DNA of 55,317 nt. It comes from a virus. Its lineage: Duplodnaviria > Caudoviricetes. The position numbers and the translations under genes are program-made. The stretch is from positions 1 through 55,317 of IMG/VR virus record IMGVR_UViG_3300021510_000001; one strand, given 5' to 3'. Positions 29,538 to 35,924 of the stretch are shown here, one piece after another. Within the stretch, counting starts at the first letter, position 1, and every line of letters begins with the position of its first letter. The notes under the pieces are model-generated. The model was not told the origin of the DNA. It saw only the letters and a list, made by a program, of their open reading frames with translations, and ran no database searches.

Positions 29538-31358
29538 ATGGCCGTACCGGACGTGTTGGACACCGTGACCGTGCGCGGCGCGTGGATCTCCCCGCTGGGT
29601 GGTGGTCCGCTGATCGGCCAGGCCTACCTGTCCGCGGTCGGCGCCATCCGCTCGCCGGTGGGCAACGTCATCCTGACCACCCAGCCGGATCTGAAGATCC
29701 TGGCCAACGGCGCCGCCGAGTGGACCGACGTGGTGCTCAGTGACTCCGCCGGGCTCGCCGCCCCGGTTGGCTACCACGTGCACGCCCACAGCGACGACAA
29801 CACCTTCCGGCACGACCGGCTGGTCGAACTGACCGCGGCCATGGTGGTCGACGGGGTGATTCGACTCGAAGATGTGCCGGACGCCGAGCCGGGTCCGGTC
29901 GTGGCGACCTACCTGCTGGCCTCCTCGCTCGGCCACGTCGGCGGTCCGGCCGGGCCGCTCGGTTCCGACGGCCTGATCCCAACCGGGCAACTGCCGGCCG
30001 CGGGTGGCTCGCAGCCGGCGGATCCGGACCTGAGTGCGATCGCCGCCCTGGTCGCCGCCAACGGGGATGTGATCCAGCGTTTCGGCGGGGTCTGGACCAA
30101 TCGGACGCCGGCCCAGCTCAAAGCCAGCCTGGCGCTGGTCATCGCGGACACTGCCGGGCTACAAGGCGCGCTGGACACGTTGACCGCGGCCACCGGCGCC
30201 GCGCAGGCCAGCGCCGACGCCAAGATCGCCGCCACACTGGTGGACGCCAAGGGCGATCTGATCGTCGCCACGGCGGCCGACACGGTGACCCGGCTGGCCG
30301 CCGGTGCCGACGGCCAGCTCCTGCGCGCCGACAGCGCCCAGGCCGCCGGGCTGCGCTGGGCGGTGATCACCATCGGCGACGTCACGGCGCTGCAAGCCGC
30401 GCTGGACGGCAAGGAGGTCGCCGGTGCGGCGGCTGGCGCCGTGACGGCGCATGTCGGCGCCGGGGATCCGCACAGCCAGTACCTCACCGCCGCCGAGGGC
30501 AACGCGGCCTACCAGCCGCTGGATGCCGACCTCGGCACGATCGCCGCGCTGGCGCCGGGCAACGGGGCGCTGATTCAGCGAATCGCCGGGGTGTGGGCCG
30601 CGCAGACCACCGCGCAGGTGAAGGCCAGTCTGGCGATCGCGTATGCGGACATCGCCGGGACGGTGCCCACCGCGGCGCTGCCACCGTTGGCGATCAACGA
30701 GGTTTTCCTGGTCGATGACCAGGCCGCGATGCTGGCGTTGACCGCGCAACGCGGGGACATGGCCATCCGCGCCGACGACGGCCGCACCTACGTGCTGGCC
30801 TCCGACTCGCCGGCCACCCTGGCCGACTGGAAAGAGGTGCTGGCCGCCGGGCAGGTCCAGTCGGTGGCCGGCCGTAGCGGTGTCGTCGTCCTGGTCAAGG
30901 CTGACGTGGGCTTGGGCCTGGTCGACAACACCAGCGACGCCGGCAAGCCGATCAGCACCGCCACCCAGGCCGCCCTGGACGCGAAGGCGCCAGTGGCGTC
31001 GCCGACGTTCATCGGGACGACGACCACGCCTCGATTGATCACCCCGCCGGTGAACTTGGTGGACGCCGCCACGATCGCCACCGACGCCAGTAGCGGCAAC
31101 TACTTCCGGGTAACGCTGGCCGGCAACCGCACGCTCGGCAACCCGAGCAACGGCATCGACGGGCAGCGGGTCATCTGGGAGTTGACCCAGGACGGCACCG
31201 GCGGCCGCACGCTCACCCTCGACACCGCGTTCGCGCTCGGCGTCGACCTCTCGGCGGTGGTGCTCTCCACCGCGGCCGGCAAGCGGGATCTGCTCGGCGG
31301 GCTCTTCCACGCGGGCACCGCGACGTGGCTCGTGATCGCGCTGGCCCGGGGCTACTGA
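29538..31358 (+). CDS. Fibre-like protein on the opposite strand, paralogous to the 5922-6884 protein
   Basis: DAKGDLIVATAADT, HVGAGDPHSQY, AAMLALTAQRGDMAIRAD, LGLVDNTSDAGKPISTATQAALDAKA fibre repeats. Confidence 0.75.
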   Translation: MAVPDVLDTVTVRGAWISPLGGGPLIGQAYLSAVGAIRSPVGNVILTTQPDLKILANGAAEWTDVVLSDSAGLAAPVGYHVHAHSDDNTFRHDRLVELTAAMVVDGVIRLEDVPDAEPGPVVATYLLASSLGHVGGPAGPLGSDGLIPTGQLPAAGGSQPADPDLSAIAALVAANGDVIQRFGGVWTNRTPAQLKASLALVIADTAGLQGALDTLTAATGAAQASADAKIAATLVDAKGDLIVATAADTVTRLAAGADGQLLRADSAQAAGLRWAVITIGDVTALQAALDGKEVAGAAAGAVTAHVGAGDPHSQYLTAAEGNAAYQPLDADLGTIAALAPGNGALIQRIAGVWAAQTTAQVKASLAIAYADIAGTVPTAALPPLAINEVFLVDDQAAMLALTAQRGDMAIRADDGRTYVLASDSPATLADWKEVLAAGQVQSVAGRSGVVVLVKADVGLGLVDNTSDAGKPISTATQAALDAKAPVASPTFIGTTTTPRLITPPVNLVDAATIATDASSGNYFRVTLAGNRTLGNPSNGIDGQRVIWELTQDGTGGRTLTLDTAFALGVDLSAVVLSTAAGKRDLLGGLFHAGTATWLVIALARGY

Positions 31359-32053
31359 TGGCGGCCCGGTTCCTCGACAACAACGATCGGGTCCGCTACC
31401 AGGGCGCCGGCCTGCCCGATCTGGGGTCCGGGGCCACCCTCACCATGTGGATCAAGCTGGGCGCCTCCACCGGCACCTTCGCGACGTTCGCGCGACTCTC
31501 CGCATCCGACGCCACCTCGGCGACGCTGGCCACCACCTCCACCGGCACCGGCGGGCCCACCTACGCCACGGCGGGCGGCGTGCTGACCGCCACGGCCGGC
31601 ATGACGACGGTGTCGTGGTACCGCTACGCCATGACGCGCCTGGGCGGCACCGGCAACCTCTACACCGCCGAGGGCCTGGCCGGCGCCACCGAGTTGATCA
31701 GCGGGGCGGTCAGCGGCGCCGACGACCCGGATCAGATTTGCTTCGGCGGCCGCTCGGCAAGCGACGGCAGCGAGGCACTCAACGGCCTCATCGCCTATCC
31801 GAAACTGTGGGGGACGGTGCTCGACCAGGACACCATCGAAGCCGAGTGGCTCTCCACCGTGCCGGTGATCGGCGCCAGTCTGGCCGGGTACTGGCCGCTG
31901 GTCACCAAGGATGACCTGACCGACCATTCCGGAAACGGCCTGCACTTGAGCCTGGTGGGCGGCGGAAACGCGCCCGGCCCGGATGAGGACGGCCCGCCGA
32001 TCTCACCCCCGGCGAGCACCGACACCAGCCGCTTCCTGGCGTTCTTCCCCTAG
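31358..32053 (+). CDS. LamG/concanavalin-A-like lectin domain protein
   Basis: TLTMWIK..WYRYAM..LNGLIAYPKLW..LAGYWPL..DHSGNGLHL; TGATG coupling. Confidence 0.75.
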   Translation: MAARFLDNNDRVRYQGAGLPDLGSGATLTMWIKLGASTGTFATFARLSASDATSATLATTSTGTGGPTYATAGGVLTATAGMTTVSWYRYAMTRLGGTGNLYTAEGLAGATELISGAVSGADDPDQICFGGRSASDGSEALNGLIAYPKLWGTVLDQDTIEAEWLSTVPVIGASLAGYWPLVTKDDLTDHSGNGLHLSLVGGGNAPGPDEDGPPISPPASTDTSRFLAFFP

Positions 32054-32062
32054 TCCGCCGCG

Positions 32063-34348
32063 TTATCGCGCGGCTATCGCCGCCGGCTGGCTCGCCACCC
32101 GCACCGCGGTGACCGTCGGACTGGAGCCGATCACCTCAAGTGCGGTCTGCTCGAGCACCACCGCGCCACCCACCACGGTGACCACGGTGCCGGCCGGGAT
32201 CGCCACGGTGAGTTGCTGGCCGGCCCCGGTGGTGGCGGCCAGACCCAGTAGCACCGGCGCGGCCAGCAGCACCCACTGGCCGACACTGGCGGTGGGCGGC
32301 CCGGTCAGGCTCCGGTAGCCGATCACCGGCTGCGGGATCGCCACCCGATAGGCCGGCCCGGGCAGGTCCACCCCGGCCGGCACCTCCACCACCTCGGCGC
32401 GCCGGGCCGCGCGCAACAACGCCTTCGCCGCGGCCTGGTCGCCCGCGCGCCGCAACGCTGCCTGGGTGAGCTGGGCGGCATCGATGCGGGCTGGATCCGG
32501 CTTGCCTAAAAGGAGCCCACACCGGCAATTTTTTGTTAGAATACTGTTCGCTAAAAACGTACCCGACGTGGTTTGGAGTGTGTAGACGTGGCCCGCAAAG
32601 CTCGATCGTTCAATCTTGCCTACGCGGTCGAGTTGTACAACTCCGGCAAAACATTGCGTGAGGTTGGCTCCATTCTCGGAGTTAGCGGAGTCACTGTTCT
32701 TGATAAGTTCACCCTGTTCGGCATTCCGCGTCGACCGCGTGGGGGCGGTGAGCTGACCCCACTTCGCCAACCGCTTGACAGCGCCGAAATTGTTCGGCGC
32801 TACTGCGACGGGGAGAGCGAACTGTCGTTGGCGCGATCCTTCAAAGTTGACAGGTCGACCATTCGGACCAGGCTTCGCCGTGCTGGGATTGAGTCCCGTG
32901 GCCGCAGCGATGCCAACACCCTGCGCTGGCAGCGTCTCGATGAAGCTGGTCGTAGGGCTCTCGTGGAGGCCGCTCACGTTGCCGTTCGCGGGCGAGTTGT
33001 CAGCAACGCTGAGCGAGCGAAAACTGCCCGGTCCCGCGAGGTTCTGACATGCTTCACCTCCCCCTGGGAGGTGGTACTGGCGGATCTCCTCATGGAACGC
33101 GGCGTGGCGTCCCATCCGCAAAGGGCTGTTGATCGCTACAACATCGACCTGGCCTGCTGGCCGATCGCCGTGGAAGTTCACCGCAATGTCGGGCATCCGC
33201 TGAATCGGCGCATCGCGCGTCAGCGTGTCGTGGACTTGCTCAATCAAGGTTGGCGAACCTTGTACGTCTGGATCAATCCCCGAACCGATATTCTCACCGA
33301 GTGGTGCGCAGACCAGGTGGTCAAGCTCATTCAGATCGCCCAGGCCGACCCAGCCGCGCTGAGTGAATACTGGGTGATTCGGGGTACCGGTGAGGACGCG
33401 TCCCTGCGCGGTTCGAATAGTGACGATCTCGCCGACGTACGGCGCCCGGAATGACCCCTCAACGTCGGATGCGGAGATCTCAGTTCCCGCGACGAAACAG
33501 TTGGCAACCTCTGGCCAGCTTTCCGGCAGGTCGGTGGGGTCACCCGGGAAGCGCAGCGCGAACATCCCGACCCGGAACCGGTCATCCAGCAGCCGCACCT
33601 GCCCGTCGGCTTTGCGGTGCGTCGAGCGCACCGCAGGGTCGCGTTTGGACAGCCACTGGGCATGCGTGACGCCCAGCATCCGGGCCTGCGCGACCGCGAC
33701 GTCGTGCCGTAGCGCGGTGCCGATGGTGCGCCCAGCCATGAGTAGCCGGCTACGCCCGGCCGCATAGGCGGCGTCGATGCGCTCGAGCAGCCCTTCCAGC
33801 GAGCCGGCGTCGAGGTCGGCGGCCGCGATCCGCTCCCGAATGACCTGCGCGTAGCGCTGGGCCACCCCGGTCAGCATGGCCAGCGCCGCATCCACCGCCC
33901 GACGTAGCTCCGCGGCGTCCACGGTGAACGGCTCGGCGCCACGGCCATCCGGCGCCCCGAGTCGCTTGGCGACCTCGGCGGCGGTGCGGGCGGCGGTGCG
34001 CTCGAACACCGGCCGCACCGCCGCCTCGATCTCCTCGACCAGCTTGGCCGGCACCACGTAATCGGTGTCGACCGGCCGCGGGGTCGCACCGGTGGCCGCA
34101 CCCACCCACCAGCGGGTGCCCTTGCGTGCGGTCGGCCCACGCATCCGCGAGAGCGTCACCCCGAGCATGCGATCCAGGTAGGCGGCCACGGCCAGCCCCA
34201 TGGCGTGGTCGGTGTCCTCGGCCTGCTGTTCGGCCAGGGCGGCGATCTGGTCACGGATCGGGCCGTGCGGCGGGTCCGGACTGGCCTCCACCACGGTGAC
34301 CGCCGCGCCGGCTAGCGGCGGCAGCTCATCGCCAGACGCTGGCTCCAT
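32063..34348 (-). CDS. MuF-like head morphogenesis / minor capsid protein, intein-containing
   Basis: QWLSKRDPAVRSTHRKADGQ..FRVG..LRFPGDP..EVAN|CRC MuF motif; overlaps the portal 3' end; start MEPASG. Confidence 0.85.
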   Translation of the reverse strand: MEPASGDELPPLAGAAVTVVEASPDPPHGPIRDQIAALAEQQAEDTDHAMGLAVAAYLDRMLGVTLSRMRGPTARKGTRWWVGAATGATPRPVDTDYVVPAKLVEEIEAAVRPVFERTAARTAAEVAKRLGAPDGRGAEPFTVDAAELRRAVDAALAMLTGVAQRYAQVIRERIAAADLDAGSLEGLLERIDAAYAAGRSRLLMAGRTIGTALRHDVAVAQARMLGVTHAQWLSKRDPAVRSTHRKADGQVRLLDDRFRVGMFALRFPGDPTDLPESWPEVANCFVAGTEISASDVEGSFRAPYVGEIVTIRTAQGRVLTGTPNHPVFTQRGWVGLGDLNELDHLVCAPLGENIGSGIDPDVQGSPTLIEQVHDTLTRDAPIQRMPDIAVNFHGDRPAGQVDVVAINSPLRMGRHAAFHEEIRQYHLPGGGEACQNLAGPGSFRSLSVADNSPANGNVSGLHESPTTSFIETLPAQGVGIAAATGLNPSTAKPGPNGRPVNFEGSRQRQFALPVAVAPNNFGAVKRLAKWGQLTAPTRSTRNAEQGELIKNSDSANSENGANLTQCFAGVVQLDRVGKIERSSFAGHVYTLQTTSGTFLANSILTKNCRCGLLLGKPDPARIDAAQLTQAALRRAGDQAAAKALLRAARRAEVVEVPAGVDLPGPAYRVAIPQPVIGYRSLTGPPTASVGQWVLLAAPVLLGLAATTGAGQQLTVAIPAGTVVTVVGGAVVLEQTALEVIGSSPTVTAVRVASQPAAIAAR
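32534..32542 (+). promoter_or_regulatory. Candidate extended -10 promoter (TGtTAGAAT) for the antisense endonuclease
   Basis: Formed by AT-rich intein C-terminal codons, ~45 nt upstream of GTG 32588; RBS GGAG at 32575-32578. Confidence 0.5.
32588..33454 (+). CDS. Antisense-encoded HTH-HTH-Vsr/DUF559-like (PD-(D/E)xK) endonuclease nested in the intein
   Basis: HTHs YNSGKTLREVGSILGVS and YCDGESELSLARSFKVDRSTIRTRL; nuclease TSPWE..LMERG..QRAVDRYNIDLA..IAVEV..H..LLNQGWRTLYVW; alternative start TTG 32573. Confidence 0.8.
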   Translation: MARKARSFNLAYAVELYNSGKTLREVGSILGVSGVTVLDKFTLFGIPRRPRGGGELTPLRQPLDSAEIVRRYCDGESELSLARSFKVDRSTIRTRLRRAGIESRGRSDANTLRWQRLDEAGRRALVEAAHVAVRGRVVSNAERAKTARSREVLTCFTSPWEVVLADLLMERGVASHPQRAVDRYNIDLACWPIAVEVHRNVGHPLNRRIARQRVVDLLNQGWRTLYVWINPRTDILTEWCADQVVKLIQIAQADPAALSEYWVIRGTGEDASLRGSNSDDLADVRRPE

Positions 34349-35924
34349 CGCGGGAGCCGCCGGCTCGCGGGGGGCCCTGCTTATCCTCCTTGTCGCCCGG
34401 CGGTTCCCGTCGCAGCGTCTCGCCCTCGGCGCCGCCACCGGCCTGTCGGCGGCCGGCCGGCAGCAGTCGCAGCGTGGTGGACGCGGCCGCCGGCAACTCC
34501 TGCTGCTGATCTCCGCCATCGACGCCCGGCTCGAGCCCGGCGGCCGGGGTTCCGGTGCCGCCCCCGGCGAGTGGGGTGGTGGCCGCCTGGACGGCGAGAT
34601 CCTCGGCGCCGGCCGCCATCCGGCCGTTGGTGGGCAGCCACAGCACCTGGGTGGCCGGCACCCCGATCGGCTCCCGACCGGTGATCTCGCGGTATTCGTC
34701 GGTGCTGATGGCGCCGCGGTCCAGGTCGGCGGCGGCCCGGTCGTCGCGCTCCCGGTCGTGGCGGCCCAGCACCCACACGTCGGAGAGGTCGTGCCGAAGG
34801 AACAAATCGTCGTCGTAGCCACCGGTGAGAATGTCGAGCTGGTCGTCGACCATGCCCAACAGCGACTTCATCCGACCTTCCCAGAAGATCGCCCAGTCCG
34901 CATCGGTGTTGTCGAAGGTCTGGCCGGCCGAATCGGTGAGGATGCTGCGCGGCACCCCGAAGACCATGGCGATGTCCTCTTTGGTGGCGCTGCTCAGCTC
35001 GCCCCACATCATGTCCCGCGGTGAACCGGAGGTGTCGGCGTAGCTGACCGAGTCGGCTTGGATCACCGTGGTGCGCCCGGCCGACTCCGGCCCGCCGGTG
35101 AACTGGGACTGGATCAGCTCCAACTGGTCGCGGCTGCTCACCCCCTTGACGGCGAGCAGCCCGCCGGGCCGGCCGTCGTTCTGCACGAAGCGTCGGTTGT
35201 AGATGCGGGCGTAGTGGTCCAGGTCGATGGACAGACCGGCGGCCTGCACCGGGCTCATGCCCTCCCACATCACCAGCGGATGCGGCGCCCGGATCCACAG
35301 CATGGAATGGGCGATCGGTTTCTTCGGGTTGTAGCGGGGCAGGTAGTCCATGGACTGCACCGCCGAGTTGGGGGTGCGGATCTCGAAGCCGGCGATCGGG
35401 TCGGTCTCGCTGGGAACGTGGTTGACCAGGTCCGGATCCACGATCTGGAGCAGCCCCATCCGGCCGCCCCGGGTCAACGTGACCTCGATGTAGACGCCCT
35501 TGCTGGACAGCAGGAACTGGGCCATCAACCGATGTCGAAAGATCCTTCCCGTCTCCCATGTGTTGGCCCGCTTGTTCAGGCAGTACAGCAGCCGGGTGGG
35601 GTCCTTGCCGACGGCCAGCGGCTCGCCCTTCTTCGGGTCGCCCTTGCGCAGGATCATCGCGCGTTCGACCGCGTTTTCGCAGATGATCTCGATGGCCCGA
35701 TAGACCAGCGGGTTGCCCTCGTAGGCCTCATCGGTGGCGCGCTTGACGCTCCACACCGAGGAGTAGGGGATGCCCGGCACCAGGTAGGCGCTGGAGCTGG
35801 CGCGTACCCGCTCCGCAGCGCCCTTGGTTTCCAGCCCCAGTACGGCCCGCAGGGCCGGTAGCGCCGTACGCACGGCGGGCAGCGCGGATCGAAGCGCGGG
35901 CAGAAGCCGACGACGCGCCGCCAC
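34326..35924 (-). CDS. Portal protein (HK97 family)
   Basis: NPLVYRAI..GMSPVQAA..FVQNDGRPGGLL..IAMVFGVP..STDEYRE. Confidence 0.93.
   Translation of the reverse strand: MAARRRLLPALRSALPAVRTALPALRAVLGLETKGAAERVRASSSAYLVPGIPYSSVWSVKRATDEAYEGNPLVYRAIEIICENAVERAMILRKGDPKKGEPLAVGKDPTRLLYCLNKRANTWETGRIFRHRLMAQFLLSSKGVYIEVTLTRGGRMGLLQIVDPDLVNHVPSETDPIAGFEIRTPNSAVQSMDYLPRYNPKKPIAHSMLWIRAPHPLVMWEGMSPVQAAGLSIDLDHYARIYNRRFVQNDGRPGGLLAVKGVSSRDQLELIQSQFTGGPESAGRTTVIQADSVSYADTSGSPRDMMWGELSSATKEDIAMVFGVPRSILTDSAGQTFDNTDADWAIFWEGRMKSLLGMVDDQLDILTGGYDDDLFLRHDLSDVWVLGRHDRERDDRAAADLDRGAISTDEYREITGREPIGVPATQVLWLPTNGRMAAGAEDLAVQAATTPLAGGGTGTPAAGLEPGVDGGDQQQELPAAASTTLRLLPAGRRQAGGGAEGETLRREPPGDKEDKQGPPRAGGSRDGASVWR

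Follow-up and report, generated by a model that had tools for sequence, protein, structure and literature searches.

An intein in a phage MuF-like minor capsid gene with a putative Vsr-like homing endonuclease gene on its opposite strand

Introduction

Inteins with an endonuclease gene on the strand opposite to their own reading frame have been described in two forms. Gosselin, Arsenault and Gogarten reported 'anti-sense VSR-like' homing endonucleases in full actinophage inteins (bioRxiv 10.1101/2025.01.02.630785), and minor capsid proteins were one of the four host protein types in which that survey found non-canonical endonucleases. The member analyzed in the preprint matched I-Bth0305I (3r3p) by HHpred with an E value of 4.6e-5. 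Antisense LAGLIDADG endonucleases in inteins were described earlier (Gorbalenya 1998; Gogarten et al. 2002, both as cited in 10.1101/2025.01.02.630785), with dnaX, a SpoVR-like protein and actinophage minor capsid proteins as hosts. Vsr-like enzymes are further represented by I-Bth0305I, of the 'EDxHD' homing endonuclease family (Taylor et al. 2011, PMC3239194), and by the endonucleases of 'fractured genes' (Dassa et al. 2009, PMC2677866).

Here we analyze a locus in IMGVR_UViG_3300021510_000001, an uncultivated IMG/VR virus record of 55,317 nucleotides, referred to as the window. A sequence-only reading of this DNA had taken the architecture to be undescribed, a claim superseded by the preprint; the architecture is real and, going by the passages of the preprint used here, was first described there in 2025, and the window provides a further example. 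Like the inteins of those passages, which come from PhagesDB phages, the window carries a full intein with a separate antisense endonuclease ORF between the splicing blocks, and the endonuclease is Vsr-like with a helical N-terminal part. The in-frame middle has no recognizable fold in the examples of the preprint and matched no Pfam family (E<=1) in the window. The antisense LAGLIDADG inteins, as cited in the preprint, share the opposite-strand arrangement but differ in the enzyme family and in the host genes reported for them. As far as the cited passages describe them, I-Bth0305I and the fractured-gene enzymes share with the window protein two HTH-type DNA-binding modules at the N terminus, a Vsr-like nuclease at the C terminus, equivalents of Asp51 and His69, a Glu at the place of Vsr residue 62, and an association with phage genes and inteins. 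However, they are encoded by ordinary non-overlapping genes in group I introns or between split-intein halves, whereas in the window the gene and a contiguous intein occupy the same DNA on opposite strands, and the Asp97 equivalent of their composite motif is Ala215 in the window protein, beside a long alignment gap. E. coli Vsr, the DUF559 structure 3hrl and REase_MTES_1575 have the nuclease core in common with the window protein but are repair or restriction-type cellular proteins without tandem HTH modules or intein context; the Glu-x-Asp of DUF559 is Glu-Val-His in the window protein. With canonical LAGLIDADG or HNH inteins the window element shares the HINT splicing domain, an insertion at the same topological place and, probably, a selfish homing life style. 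Unlike in those inteins, the sense translation of the insertion would be a stop-free linker and the endonuclease a separate polypeptide, which could therefore be made without translating the late host gene.

Beyond the passages of the preprint used here, the present analysis adds the strand switch of selection, the fixed codon register and the putative expression signals within blocks F and G. It also extends the range to phages of Proteobacteria and of several more bacterial phyla and to additional host genes, and it adds relatives that stand free next to MuF.

Results

The MuF-like host gene and its intein

The host gene and the parts of the intein are as follows.

32063..34348, minus strand: MuF-like minor capsid (head morphogenesis) precursor gene, intein included, from the ORF listing
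33500..34348, minus strand: N-extein, final residues FPGDPTDLPESWPEVAN
32066..32527, minus strand: C-extein, first residues CRCGLLLGKPDP
32528..33499, minus strand: intein of 324 aa within N|CRC of the MuF gene, from splicing blocks, junctions and profile matches
33350..33499, minus strand: N-terminal splicing region (about residues 1-50, with blocks A-B), under sense-frame constraint
32528..32590, minus strand: C-terminal splicing region (residues 304-324, with blocks F-G), likewise under sense-frame constraint

The minus-strand ORF 32063..34822 contains the MuF-like frame including the intein; translation probably starts at ATG 34348, within a frame that stays open as far as 34822, the stop codon lies at 32063-32065, and a portal gene is directly upstream. 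Phage_Mu_F (PF04233) matched the window frame weakly, at 14.4 bits against a cut-off of 29.6 that was passed by the exteins of relatives (L005 30.6, L006 35.7 and L039 91.5 bits), and the intein frame matched PHROG 15127, annotated 'head protein'. The precursor frame around the intein reads ...ESWPEVAN|CFVAGTEI...TPNHPVFT...GHVYTLQTTSGTFLANSILTKN|CRCGLLL, and an intein-less relative of the window MuF, 51% identical (L038), reads ...ESWEEIAN|CRCGLLF without interruption. That the MuF gene is split at N|CRC by a 324-aa intein with splicing blocks, as first proposed from the sequence, was thus confirmed at 32528-33499 on the minus strand.

Cys1 follows directly after ...EVAN and a single open frame crosses both junctions. 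The intein has block B TPNH at residues 39-42, block F HVYTLQT and a C-terminal Lys-Asn followed by Cys+1 (...ILTKN|C), and in 11 aligned inteins Pro40, Asn41, His42 and Asn324 were invariant. The penultimate His of class 1 inteins is absent from the window intein, which has Lys323; the residue is Lys or Arg in the clade of the window and His in other relatives. A penultimate His is dispensable in some inteins. Pfam Intein_splicing matched with an E value of 1.3e-8 (35.3 bits, cut-off 35.8) and NCBIfam intein_Nterm scored 24.2 (cut-off 24.5), with a curated intein profile cut-off passed by two relatives (L017 and L024); the RecA mini-intein PI-MtuI matched residues 24-71 (E 0.003). The Intein_splicing match spread residues 7-324 over profile positions 32-155, and the large middle of the intein is therefore unmatched. 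In the Pfam search at E<=1 only the splicing domain was matched in the intein frame and no LAGLIDADG or HNH family was found, in agreement with the sequence-only reading, which saw neither in the sense middle. The G+C content was 0.51-0.65 within the intein and 0.72-0.78 in the flanks. Taken together, the element reads as a class-1-type intein in a MuF-like minor capsid gene, predicted to splice.

An antisense gene with putative signals in blocks F and G

32588..33454, plus strand: predicted antisense homing-endonuclease gene of 288 aa, probably starting at GTG 32588 and ending with TGA 33452-33454
32575..32578, plus strand: GGAG, likely ribosome-binding site, 9 nt before GTG 32588
32534..32542, plus strand: TGT-TAGAAT, putative extended -10-like box, ending 45 nt before the start codon

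The plus-strand ORF of 32588-33454 noted earlier inside the intein was recovered. Relatives start with ATG or GTG at the position aligned with its GTG 32588, and the open frame extends upstream to TTG 32573 (32573..33454, 293 aa from TTG). The ORF lies in exact reverse-complement codon register with the intein frame. The chance of an open antisense frame of 293 codons was about 0.008, given the position-specific composition of the intein middle, and openness of the ORF is for this reason modest evidence only. The strong evidence for the antisense gene is its homology, fold and substitution pattern.

The putative signals are mirrored in the splicing blocks: GGAG mirrors the block F Leu-Gln codons, TGT-TAGAAT mirrors the block G codons Thr-Leu-Ile, and the start codon is automatic, as it mirrors the conserved block F His codon. 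The reverse complement of the C-terminal splicing region thereby carries a -10-like box, a ribosome-binding site and the start codon of the endonuclease gene. Among 28 nested loci, the ribosome-binding-site position held GGAG in 14 and GAG in 5 more, and TAnnAT occurred at the same fixed place in 12, of which 8 had TGn upstream; both signals are in part dictated by the block F/G amino acids. A two-hexamer consensus scan of 32300-33700 returned no promoter. An RNA library contained identical small contigs over the region, without strand information.

Predicted fold and candidate active site

Residues of the antisense protein are numbered from TTG 32573.

32615..32716, plus strand: first three-helix HTH module, residues 15-48 (AlphaFold2 helices 15-23, 28-35, 39-48)
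32780..32881, plus strand: second HTH module, residues 70-103 (AlphaFold2 helices 70-78, 83-90, 94-103)
33053..33364, plus strand: Vsr/DUF559/MTES_1575-like nuclease core, residues 161-264 (hhalign, profiles, AlphaFold2 strands)

AlphaFold2, run with 141 relatives, modeled the antisense protein with a mean pLDDT of 90.1 and a pTM of 0.71, as two HTH modules, a helical linker and an alpha/beta nuclease core with strands at 181-186, 189-195, 198-203 and 228-233. The two HTH modules and Vsr/DUF559-like nuclease named in the initial reading are borne out by this model and by hhalign of the family profile to E. coli Vsr (probability 85.5%, E 5.7e-6). The first HTH module contains a Sigma70_r4 match at residues 22-42, and HTH_23 matched residues 71-103 (E 3.5e-5) as well as 66 of the 141 relatives. 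The tandem-HTH structure 2lvs matched the endonuclease family profile at E 6.5e-8, and PHROG matches of the N-terminal part include the DNA-binding region of an 'HNH endonuclease' family.

For the nuclease core, 3hrl matched the family profile at E 8.4e-5 and Pfam REase_MTES_1575 (PF18741) was matched by 101/141 relatives at E<=0.01 (best E 7.8e-11). The window protein alone fell below the REase_MTES_1575 cut-off (15.0 bits vs 38.2), as did its every other Pfam match below the respective curated cut-off, and I-Bth0305I (3r3p) was not among the 57 chains found with the family profile at E<=10 (HMMER). The Vsr alignment pairs the candidate active-site residues Glu166 with Glu25, Gln183 with Gln42, Asp192 with Asp51, Glu201 with position 62, His203 with His64 and His208 with His69. 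Asp192 and Glu201 are conserved in 141/141 sequences, Gln183 in 134 and His208 in 96. A long gap just before Ala215, at the Vsr Asp97 equivalent, interrupts the hhalign alignment. The His in place of Asp after the catalytic Glu-Val had raised doubts about activity; this position varies in the family (His 52/141, Phe 41/141) and the window His is the one aligned with Vsr His64, and the concern does not hold. The antisense product is thus predicted to be a Vsr-like nuclease fold.

The endonuclease family and its arrangement in relatives

The P0002 search returned 2,722 representatives of 50%-identity clusters at E<=1e-3, 1,405 at 1e-10 and 122 at 1e-30, and one called homologue carries the JGI name 'very-short-patch-repair endonuclease'. 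The antisense ORF is a real gene and a member of a conserved protein family. A check for the ORF in homologous inteins, proposed at the outset, found it nested in 35/37 related loci: a long minus-strand frame of 294-1509 aa covers it in 25/26 loci and in 10/11 additional phage loci, as it does in the window, always in the same reverse-complement register. The host genes of the nested elements encode MuF, minor capsid protein 2, VG15, terminase and dCMP deaminase, and across them the anchoring is the same, with the start at the mirror of the block F His and the tail over the mirror of block B.

Selection on the two strands

The comparison of dN/dS per strand suggested by the sequence-only reading was carried out as pN/pS on 10 Jersey-type sequences. 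In the endonuclease core, segregating sites at antisense codon positions 1/2/3 numbered 58/26/94 and pN/pS was 0.30 in the antisense and 0.78 in the sense frame, values which in overlapping frames are mutually confounded, 0.30-0.55 indicating moderate constraint only. The exteins gave 89/14/21 and 117/31/50, with sense pN/pS of 0.10-0.20. In the clade of the window, the core showed 562/449/812 differences and amino-acid identities of 0.55 antisense vs 0.38 sense, and the N-terminal splicing region 117/29/57, mostly at sense third positions, with identities of 0.77 sense vs 0.54 antisense. The sequences behind all counts given here are related, so that the counts do not represent independent events. 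Substitutions thus fell at antisense third positions in the intein middle and at sense third positions in the exteins and splicing blocks. As far as sequence comparison goes, this shows selection on the antisense frame in the intein middle and on the sense frame at the intein ends. By tblastn, the antisense frame scored higher than the sense frame in Vivi2 (184 vs 141 bits) and in the Jersey type (87 vs 66 bits).

The chance of finding no TTA, CTA or TCA codons was 5e-4 for the endonuclease codons and 3e-5 for the sense codons of a member of 50% GC. Stops in the mirror frame numbered 12/298 and 8/364 in free-standing relatives and 0/299 in a nested relative. These figures show that both frames are kept open.

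Mobility in relatives

In Jersey-type Salmonella phages the intein is present in some and absent from other related members. The whole intein was found in 70 records, and among the matches listed were some with 17-21% query coverage, in two pieces joining both flanks; in SF5, one such two-piece match, the MuF site was uninterrupted in the fetched sequence. The intein was more alike than both exteins in 43/45 Jersey-type pairs. Presence and absence together with this greater likeness of the intein reads as a homing signature.

Discussion

Most probably the locus is a composite selfish element in which two genes share DNA on opposite strands, an intein on the minus and a putative homing endonuclease on the plus strand. 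Blocks A-B and F-G alone would form the splicing domain, and the approximately 250 codons between them would act as a stop-free linker, translated and then removed with the intein. The same codons, reverse-complemented, would encode the 288-aa homing endonuclease, made from its own signals mirrored in blocks F and G (the -10-like box, GGAG and GTG start). During mixed infection the enzyme would recognize and cut intein-less MuF alleles near the N|CRC codons, recombinational repair would copy intein and endonuclease gene jointly, and protein splicing would keep MuF functional after insertion. The central proposal of the earlier reading, a dual-strand element whose sense frame stays open and splices while the antisense gene supplies mobility, is in this way upheld by comparative evidence.

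The gene may be real in the family but inactive for homing in the window, either decaying or serving another role such as DNA binding or regulation, with the intein inherited vertically. We consider this unlikely. The nearest relatives of the window element are 49-61% identical, none close enough to reveal a recent transfer of the window copy; the Asp97 equivalent is absent in the hhalign alignment, Tyr takes the place of His208 in the close relatives L013 and L014, and most VSR-like intein groups look vertically inherited in the part of the preprint that treats them (10.1101/2025.01.02.630785). However, the window ORF is intact and keeps all six candidate residues, the antisense-frame substitution pattern persists in its clade, and a G+C content below that of the host gene suggests a residence too short for the host composition to have been acquired.

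It is very improbable that the endonuclease is an independent selfish gene of free-standing type, for which the intein is a mere safe harbor, cutting elsewhere and not moving jointly with it. The same endonuclease lineage does occur free-standing beside intein-less MuF genes, in L023 and Acinetobacter phage P1068, and one free-standing member falls within a well-supported clade of nested members. Against this, register and anchoring are constant across the five kinds of host gene, from which we argue that intein and endonuclease travel together, and the likeness of the Jersey-type inteins above their exteins extends over the whole intein, beyond the endonuclease core.

Scarcely credible is a mirror artefact, in which the in-frame middle would be a novel endonuclease or other domain and the antisense conservation its mere reverse complement: in this codon register a conserved stretch of one frame is indeed reflected in the other, sense 'FHGDG..VDVV' mirroring 'YNIDLA..AVEV' and the antisense C-terminal motif mirroring block B, but the reading is disfavored by the strand of the substitutions and the higher antisense amino-acid identity, by the confident fold and the matches to Vsr, DUF559 and MTES_1575, by free-standing homologues whose mirror frame is full of stops, and by in-frame middles that match no family in the window (Pfam, E<=1) and have no recognizable structure in the examples given in the preprint passages (10.1101/2025.01.02.630785).

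Within the composite-element reading, we propose tentatively, and at slightly below an even chance as a whole, that the window element belongs to one old and very widespread module whose blocks F and G were co-opted for expression signals. Such a module would number at least some 1,400 protein clusters (50% identity) and would occupy no fewer than five families of host genes; its carriers would be phages and prophage-like loci of Actinomycetota, Pseudomonadota, Chloroflexota, Planctomycetota, Gemmatimonadota and further groups. Because the blocks would double as the start codon, the ribosome-binding site and the -10 box, a single fixed codon register would tie the intein to the endonuclease. 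The free-standing members beside intein-less MuF genes would then be natural snapshots of endonuclease and intein joining or parting, and even phages with a long history of study, Aaphi23 and the Jersey-type Salmonella phages among them, would carry overlooked members of the class.

An antisense endonuclease gene would uncouple expression of the enzyme from the late structural host gene. The arrangement offers a route for the merging of free-standing endonucleases with mini-inteins and would support the 'splicing first' view of intein origin. It also presents a clean natural case of long dual-strand coding in bacterial viruses, with both frames held open, yet selection for protein sequence acting on just one of them at each place. 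Such genes are missed in gene calling and curation, or one strand alone is called, so that intein surveys class the elements as decaying or mini-inteins, and our data suggest that the class is far commoner and wider spread than in the sole survey describing antisense VSR-like inteins. Cultured carriers include E. coli phage Snoke, the Jersey-type phages and Gordonia phage Vivi2, and the best cultured relatives of the window element are Gordonia phages.

An intein interrupts the MuF-like gene

The window, an IMG/VR virus record of 55,317 bases whose completeness was put at about half by CheckV, encodes a portal protein 32-34% identical to the portals of Gordonia, Brevibacterium and Streptomyces phages. 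The minus-strand frame that immediately follows the portal gene, open over 32063..34822, encodes a MuF-like minor capsid protein. The features of the locus are listed here.

Features of the MuF locus in the window
34348, minus strand: ATG, probable start of the MuF-like gene among the candidate starts in the open frame
32528-33499, minus strand: intein of 324 aa, between ...ESWPEVAN and CRCGLLL of the MuF-like protein
32573 to 33454, plus strand: antisense ORF, open over this length inside the intein
32588, plus strand: GTG, probable antisense start, lining up with the ATG or GTG starts of relatives
32575-32578, plus strand: GGAG, preceding the GTG at 32588
32534-32542, plus strand: -10-like box TGT-TAGAAT, mirror of block G codons

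An intein of this length, with splicing blocks and lodged at the N|CRC motif of MuF, had been proposed in a sequence-only reading of the window, and its presence was confirmed. The intein begins with Cys1, carries TPNH (block B) and HVYTLQT (block F), and ends in Lys-Asn, with a Cys as the next residue. A MuF relative (L038, 51% identical) supplies the empty site, running ...ESWEEIAN|CRCGLLF uninterrupted. Pfam recognized the splicing domain alone, stretched across both ends of the intein (35.3 bits against a cut-off of 35.8), and in agreement with the same reading no LAGLIDADG or HNH family was found in the intein at E<=1. G+C is 0.51-0.65 within the intein, lower than the 0.72-0.78 of its flanks. 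A search of 31500-35000 against Rfam returned no RNA family at E<=1, and so nothing points to an intron.

Two minor features of the region were recorded. The penultimate residue of the intein (residue 323; 32531-32533, minus strand) is Lys or Arg in the window and in four related loci (L005, L012, L013 and L014) and His in most relatives. Plus-strand minor-tail-like genes (29538-32053; PHROG minor tail protein families) converge on the minus-strand MuF and portal genes (32063-35924) with a gap of 10 bases (32053/32063), in which a scan found no terminator-like site.

Both frames are open in a shared codon register

The plus-strand codons are the exact reverse complements of the intein codons, one for one, and because of the genetic code either frame in this register remains open if the other avoids TTA, CTA and TCA. 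Given the local composition, so long an antisense frame would be open by chance with a probability of about 0.008, which is suggestive of a gene and not decisive. G+C per codon position is the same for both frames (0.669/0.492/0.669) and, being identical in this register, is uninformative on which of them codes. In one member of about 50% G+C, the endonuclease codons would lack TTA, CTA and TCA by chance with a probability of 5e-4, and the sense codons with a probability of 3e-5. The mirror frames of two free-standing homologues carry 12 stops (Acinetobacter phage P1068, locus L042) and 8 stops (locus L023), as against 0 in one nested member. On these codon counts, the openness of both frames is maintained by selection.

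The antisense ORF encodes a Vsr-like protein

The plus-strand ORF had been read as HTH modules followed by a Vsr-like nuclease, and family and structure comparisons bear this out. An exhaustive HMMER search returned 2,722 cluster representatives at E<=1e-3, 1,405 at 1e-10 and 122 at 1e-30, while a word-indexed search returned six called proteins, among which JGI names one 'very-short-patch-repair endonuclease'. AlphaFold2, supplied with a 141-member alignment, produced a model (mean pLDDT 90.1, pTM 0.71) consisting of three-helix modules at residues 15-48 and 70-103 (numbered from TTG 32573), a helical linker, and an alpha/beta core whose strands occupy 181-186, 189-195, 198-203 and 228-233. 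The family profile matched the tandem-HTH structure 2lvs (E 6.5e-8) and the DUF559 'endonuclease-like protein' 3hrl (E 8.4e-5), and among the 141 members 101 matched Pfam REase_MTES_1575 and 66 matched HTH_23. The window protein alone, compared with the PDB by phmmer, gave chance-level matches and nothing more, and no PHROGs family was found for the nuclease part.

With respect to nuclease residues, profile comparison matched E. coli Vsr to the family with a probability of 85.5% (E 5.7e-6), pairing Glu166, Gln183, Asp192, His203 and His208 with Vsr Glu25, Gln42, Asp51, His64 and His69, respectively. Glu201 pairs with Vsr position 62, where a Glu is the extra Glu of the EDxHD family as described in passages of Dassa 2009 (PMC2677866) and Taylor 2011 (PMC3239194). 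Asn190, Asp192 and Glu201 are invariant across the alignment, position 208 is His in 96 of 141, and the position of Vsr Asp97 is occupied by Ala215 in the window protein. The position following Glu-Val, where His was earlier noted as a departure from the usual residue, varies within the family (His in 52 and Phe in 41 of the 141). As judged from sequence comparison and predicted fold, the product of the antisense ORF is a real protein.

Selection changes strand along the intein

A comparison of substitutions per strand, as suggested in the sequence-only reading, was carried out on counts taken over related sequences. With codon boundaries common to both frames, position 1 of a sense codon is position 3 of the antisense codon and vice versa. 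In ten sequences from Jersey-type phages, a Salmonella phage group (intein 78-100% identical, both frames open in all ten), segregating sites in the endonuclease core numbered 58/26/94 at antisense positions 1/2/3, and pN/pS, a rough guide only in overlapping frames, was 0.30 for the antisense frame versus 0.78 for the sense frame. The two exteins, the MuF parts that flank the intein, gave 89/14/21 and 117/31/50 with sense pN/pS of 0.10 and 0.20, and the block F/G part gave 8/1/1. Within the window's own clade (the window, L012, L013 and L014), differences in the endonuclease core were 562/449/812 and amino-acid identity was 0.55 antisense versus 0.38 sense, while in the N-terminal splicing region differences were 117/29/57 and identity was 0.77 sense versus 0.54 antisense; the C-extein rows of this clade, aligned via the antisense translation, were poorly aligned and hence uninformative. 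These patterns indicate that selection changes strand twice along the intein, the core being constrained in the antisense frame and the ends in the sense frame. Antisense tblastn scores exceeded sense scores for Vivi2 (184 vs 141 bits) and for Jersey-type phages (87 vs 66 bits), in agreement with this strand switch.

Distribution, host genes and mobility

Of 26 loci that a search with a narrow alignment drew from viral, genome and phage collections, 25 show the ORF nested in the same register, as does the window (L004 and L013 are one contig). This arrangement was likewise present in 10 of 11 further phages, a set which includes Aaphi23, an Idiomarinaceae phage, and Pseudomonas, Vibrio, Klebsiella, Edwardsiella and Gordonia phages. 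Genome matches were MAGs of Chloroflexota, Pseudomonadota, Thermomicrobiota, Actinomycetota, Planctomycetota, Gemmatimonadota and Coriobacteriia. The host genes encode MuF (N|CRC site), minor capsid protein 2, VG15, terminase large subunit and dCMP deaminase. A second MuF site, upstream of a ...RPTH..ADGQ... motif, holds an intein in two IMG/VR contigs (L018 and L021, minus strand); the L018 intein ends ...VVHN|S, and the N|CRC-type site further on is uninterrupted in both.

Several individual records may be mentioned. The gene at L022:1289-3556 (minus strand), for a terminase large subunit (Terminase_3, E 9.9e-10), contains an intein whose antisense endonuclease ORF belongs to this family and shares its codon register. 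The 'putative head morphogenesis protein' of Virus Rctr197k (KX853510.1; L047:619-2025, minus strand) is, by its Pfam match (dCMP_cyt_deam_1, E 5.6e-11, above cut-off), a cytidine/deoxycytidylate deaminase, and it holds an intein of this kind, again with an endonuclease ORF antisense to it. In Salmonella phage vB_StyS-sam (LC507823.1), the 'hypothetical protein' ORF43 opposite the head morphogenesis gene (L002:2793-3194, plus strand) corresponds to part of the antisense endonuclease gene, and in the Escherichia phage Snoke record the intein is annotated and the antisense gene is not.

The whole intein was found in 70 records of Jersey-type and related phages. Among the matches listed, those covering 17-21% of the query join both flanks in two pieces, and in one of these, SF5, the MuF site is uninterrupted. 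In 43 of 45 pairs of these phages the intein is more alike than both exteins, one pair having 100% identical inteins and N-exteins 71% identical. Such presence and absence, together with intein likeness, is the pattern that recent homing would be expected to leave in these phages; the window's own copy has no close relatives among the sequences searched.

Relation to published work

The view that this architecture was undescribed did not hold, as it appears already, in the form of 'anti-sense VSR-like' endonucleases of actinophage inteins, in a PhagesDB survey by Gosselin, Arsenault and Gogarten (bioRxiv 10.1101/2025.01.02.630785, latest version October 2025). Passages of that preprint count minor capsid proteins among the four types of host protein with non-canonical endonucleases, report no recognisable structure in the in-frame middle, propose that free-standing endonuclease genes invaded inteins, predict that such inteins are commoner than known, and cite antisense LAGLIDADG cases (Gorbalenya 1998; Gogarten 2002). 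The architecture is thus real and was correctly read, but the window adds a new uncultivated member of it and not a new architecture. The strand switch of selection, the fixed register, the block F/G signals, the spread outside actinophages and the free-standing relatives beside MuF go beyond those passages, although the supplements may bear on some of them. In the open-access papers searched, no other paper joining these terms was found, nor one treating the intein in Salmonella phage head morphogenesis genes. The term 'opposite strand' in PMC8966425 was considered as a precedent for an antisense gene and rejected, since the passages concern cleavage sites and not gene orientation.

Using tblastn, a Vsr-like antisense ORF was seen in MuF-like genes of the Gordonia phages Affeca, Angelicage and Keitabear. 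In its passages the preprint places 'Angelicase', Affeca and Keitabear in one cluster under endonuclease VII-like inteins, which may reflect either another intein in these phages or a classification that differs. Its VSR-like intein clusters may already include the Gordonia relatives found here.

Candidate expression signals

Blocks F and G were matched in 28 of 31 nested loci tried, L010, L047 and L049 being off-pattern and uncounted. Among the 28, the block F His codon read in mirror gives the antisense start (ATG in 16, GTG in 9), an automatic consequence of that His being conserved. The mirror of the block F Leu and the next codon contains GGAG in 14 and GAG in 5. A TAnnAT hexamer, the mirror of block G codons -3 and -4, is present in 12 of the 28, with TGn upstream in 8. 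Only at the third base of codon -3 is this hexamer free to vary; 13 of the 28 have A there, as against 11.3% of Val/Ile/Leu codons in the same genes, an excess which, in loci that are related, hints at an embedded -10 box. From these mirrors we infer that blocks F and G may harbor expression signals of the antisense gene. A standard scan of 32300-33700 found no two-hexamer promoter or terminator, so that the promoter idea has the -10-like box as its one element. According to passages of Dassa et al. (PMC2677866), hairpins precede free-standing endonuclease genes; the 5' leader at 32543-32600 is no more stably folded than shuffled sequences are (z 0.93).

One metatranscriptome run (X1, share 0.52) yielded six identical contigs of 151-227 nt, two of which bridge the intein-extein junctions (both). 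These contigs carry no strand, DNA is possible in an RNA library and uncovered parts mean nothing, and they are no evidence for or against antisense transcription. A 212-nt contig of this run matches 33247-33426, stopping 26 nt before the antisense stop codon, and continues into about 30 A-rich letters foreign to the window, whose origin may be tail addition, a chimera or an artefact.

Free-standing relatives beside MuF

In two loci, L023 and that of Acinetobacter phage P1068 (L042), the endonuclease homologue is an ordinary gene that converges on an intein-less MuF gene and abuts or overlaps it.

Free-standing homologues and adjacent MuF genes
L023, 1321-2412, plus strand: endonuclease homologue
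L023, 2415-3242, minus strand: intein-less MuF gene
L042, 1354-2247, plus strand: endonuclease homologue
L042, 2241-3017, minus strand: intein-less MuF gene

Both MuF genes have a CRC or CKC motif 12-17 codons before the stop. In an unrooted tree, from which L024 was left out because it had no anchor motif, the P1068 gene was placed within a clade of nested members with support of 97/99, indicating that members of this lineage can lie next to MuF with no intein involved; being unrooted, the tree gives no direction for the change between nested and free-standing forms. The mirror of the C-terminal tail of the L023 homologue still reads T-P-D-H, like intein block B, and that of the L042 homologue does not.
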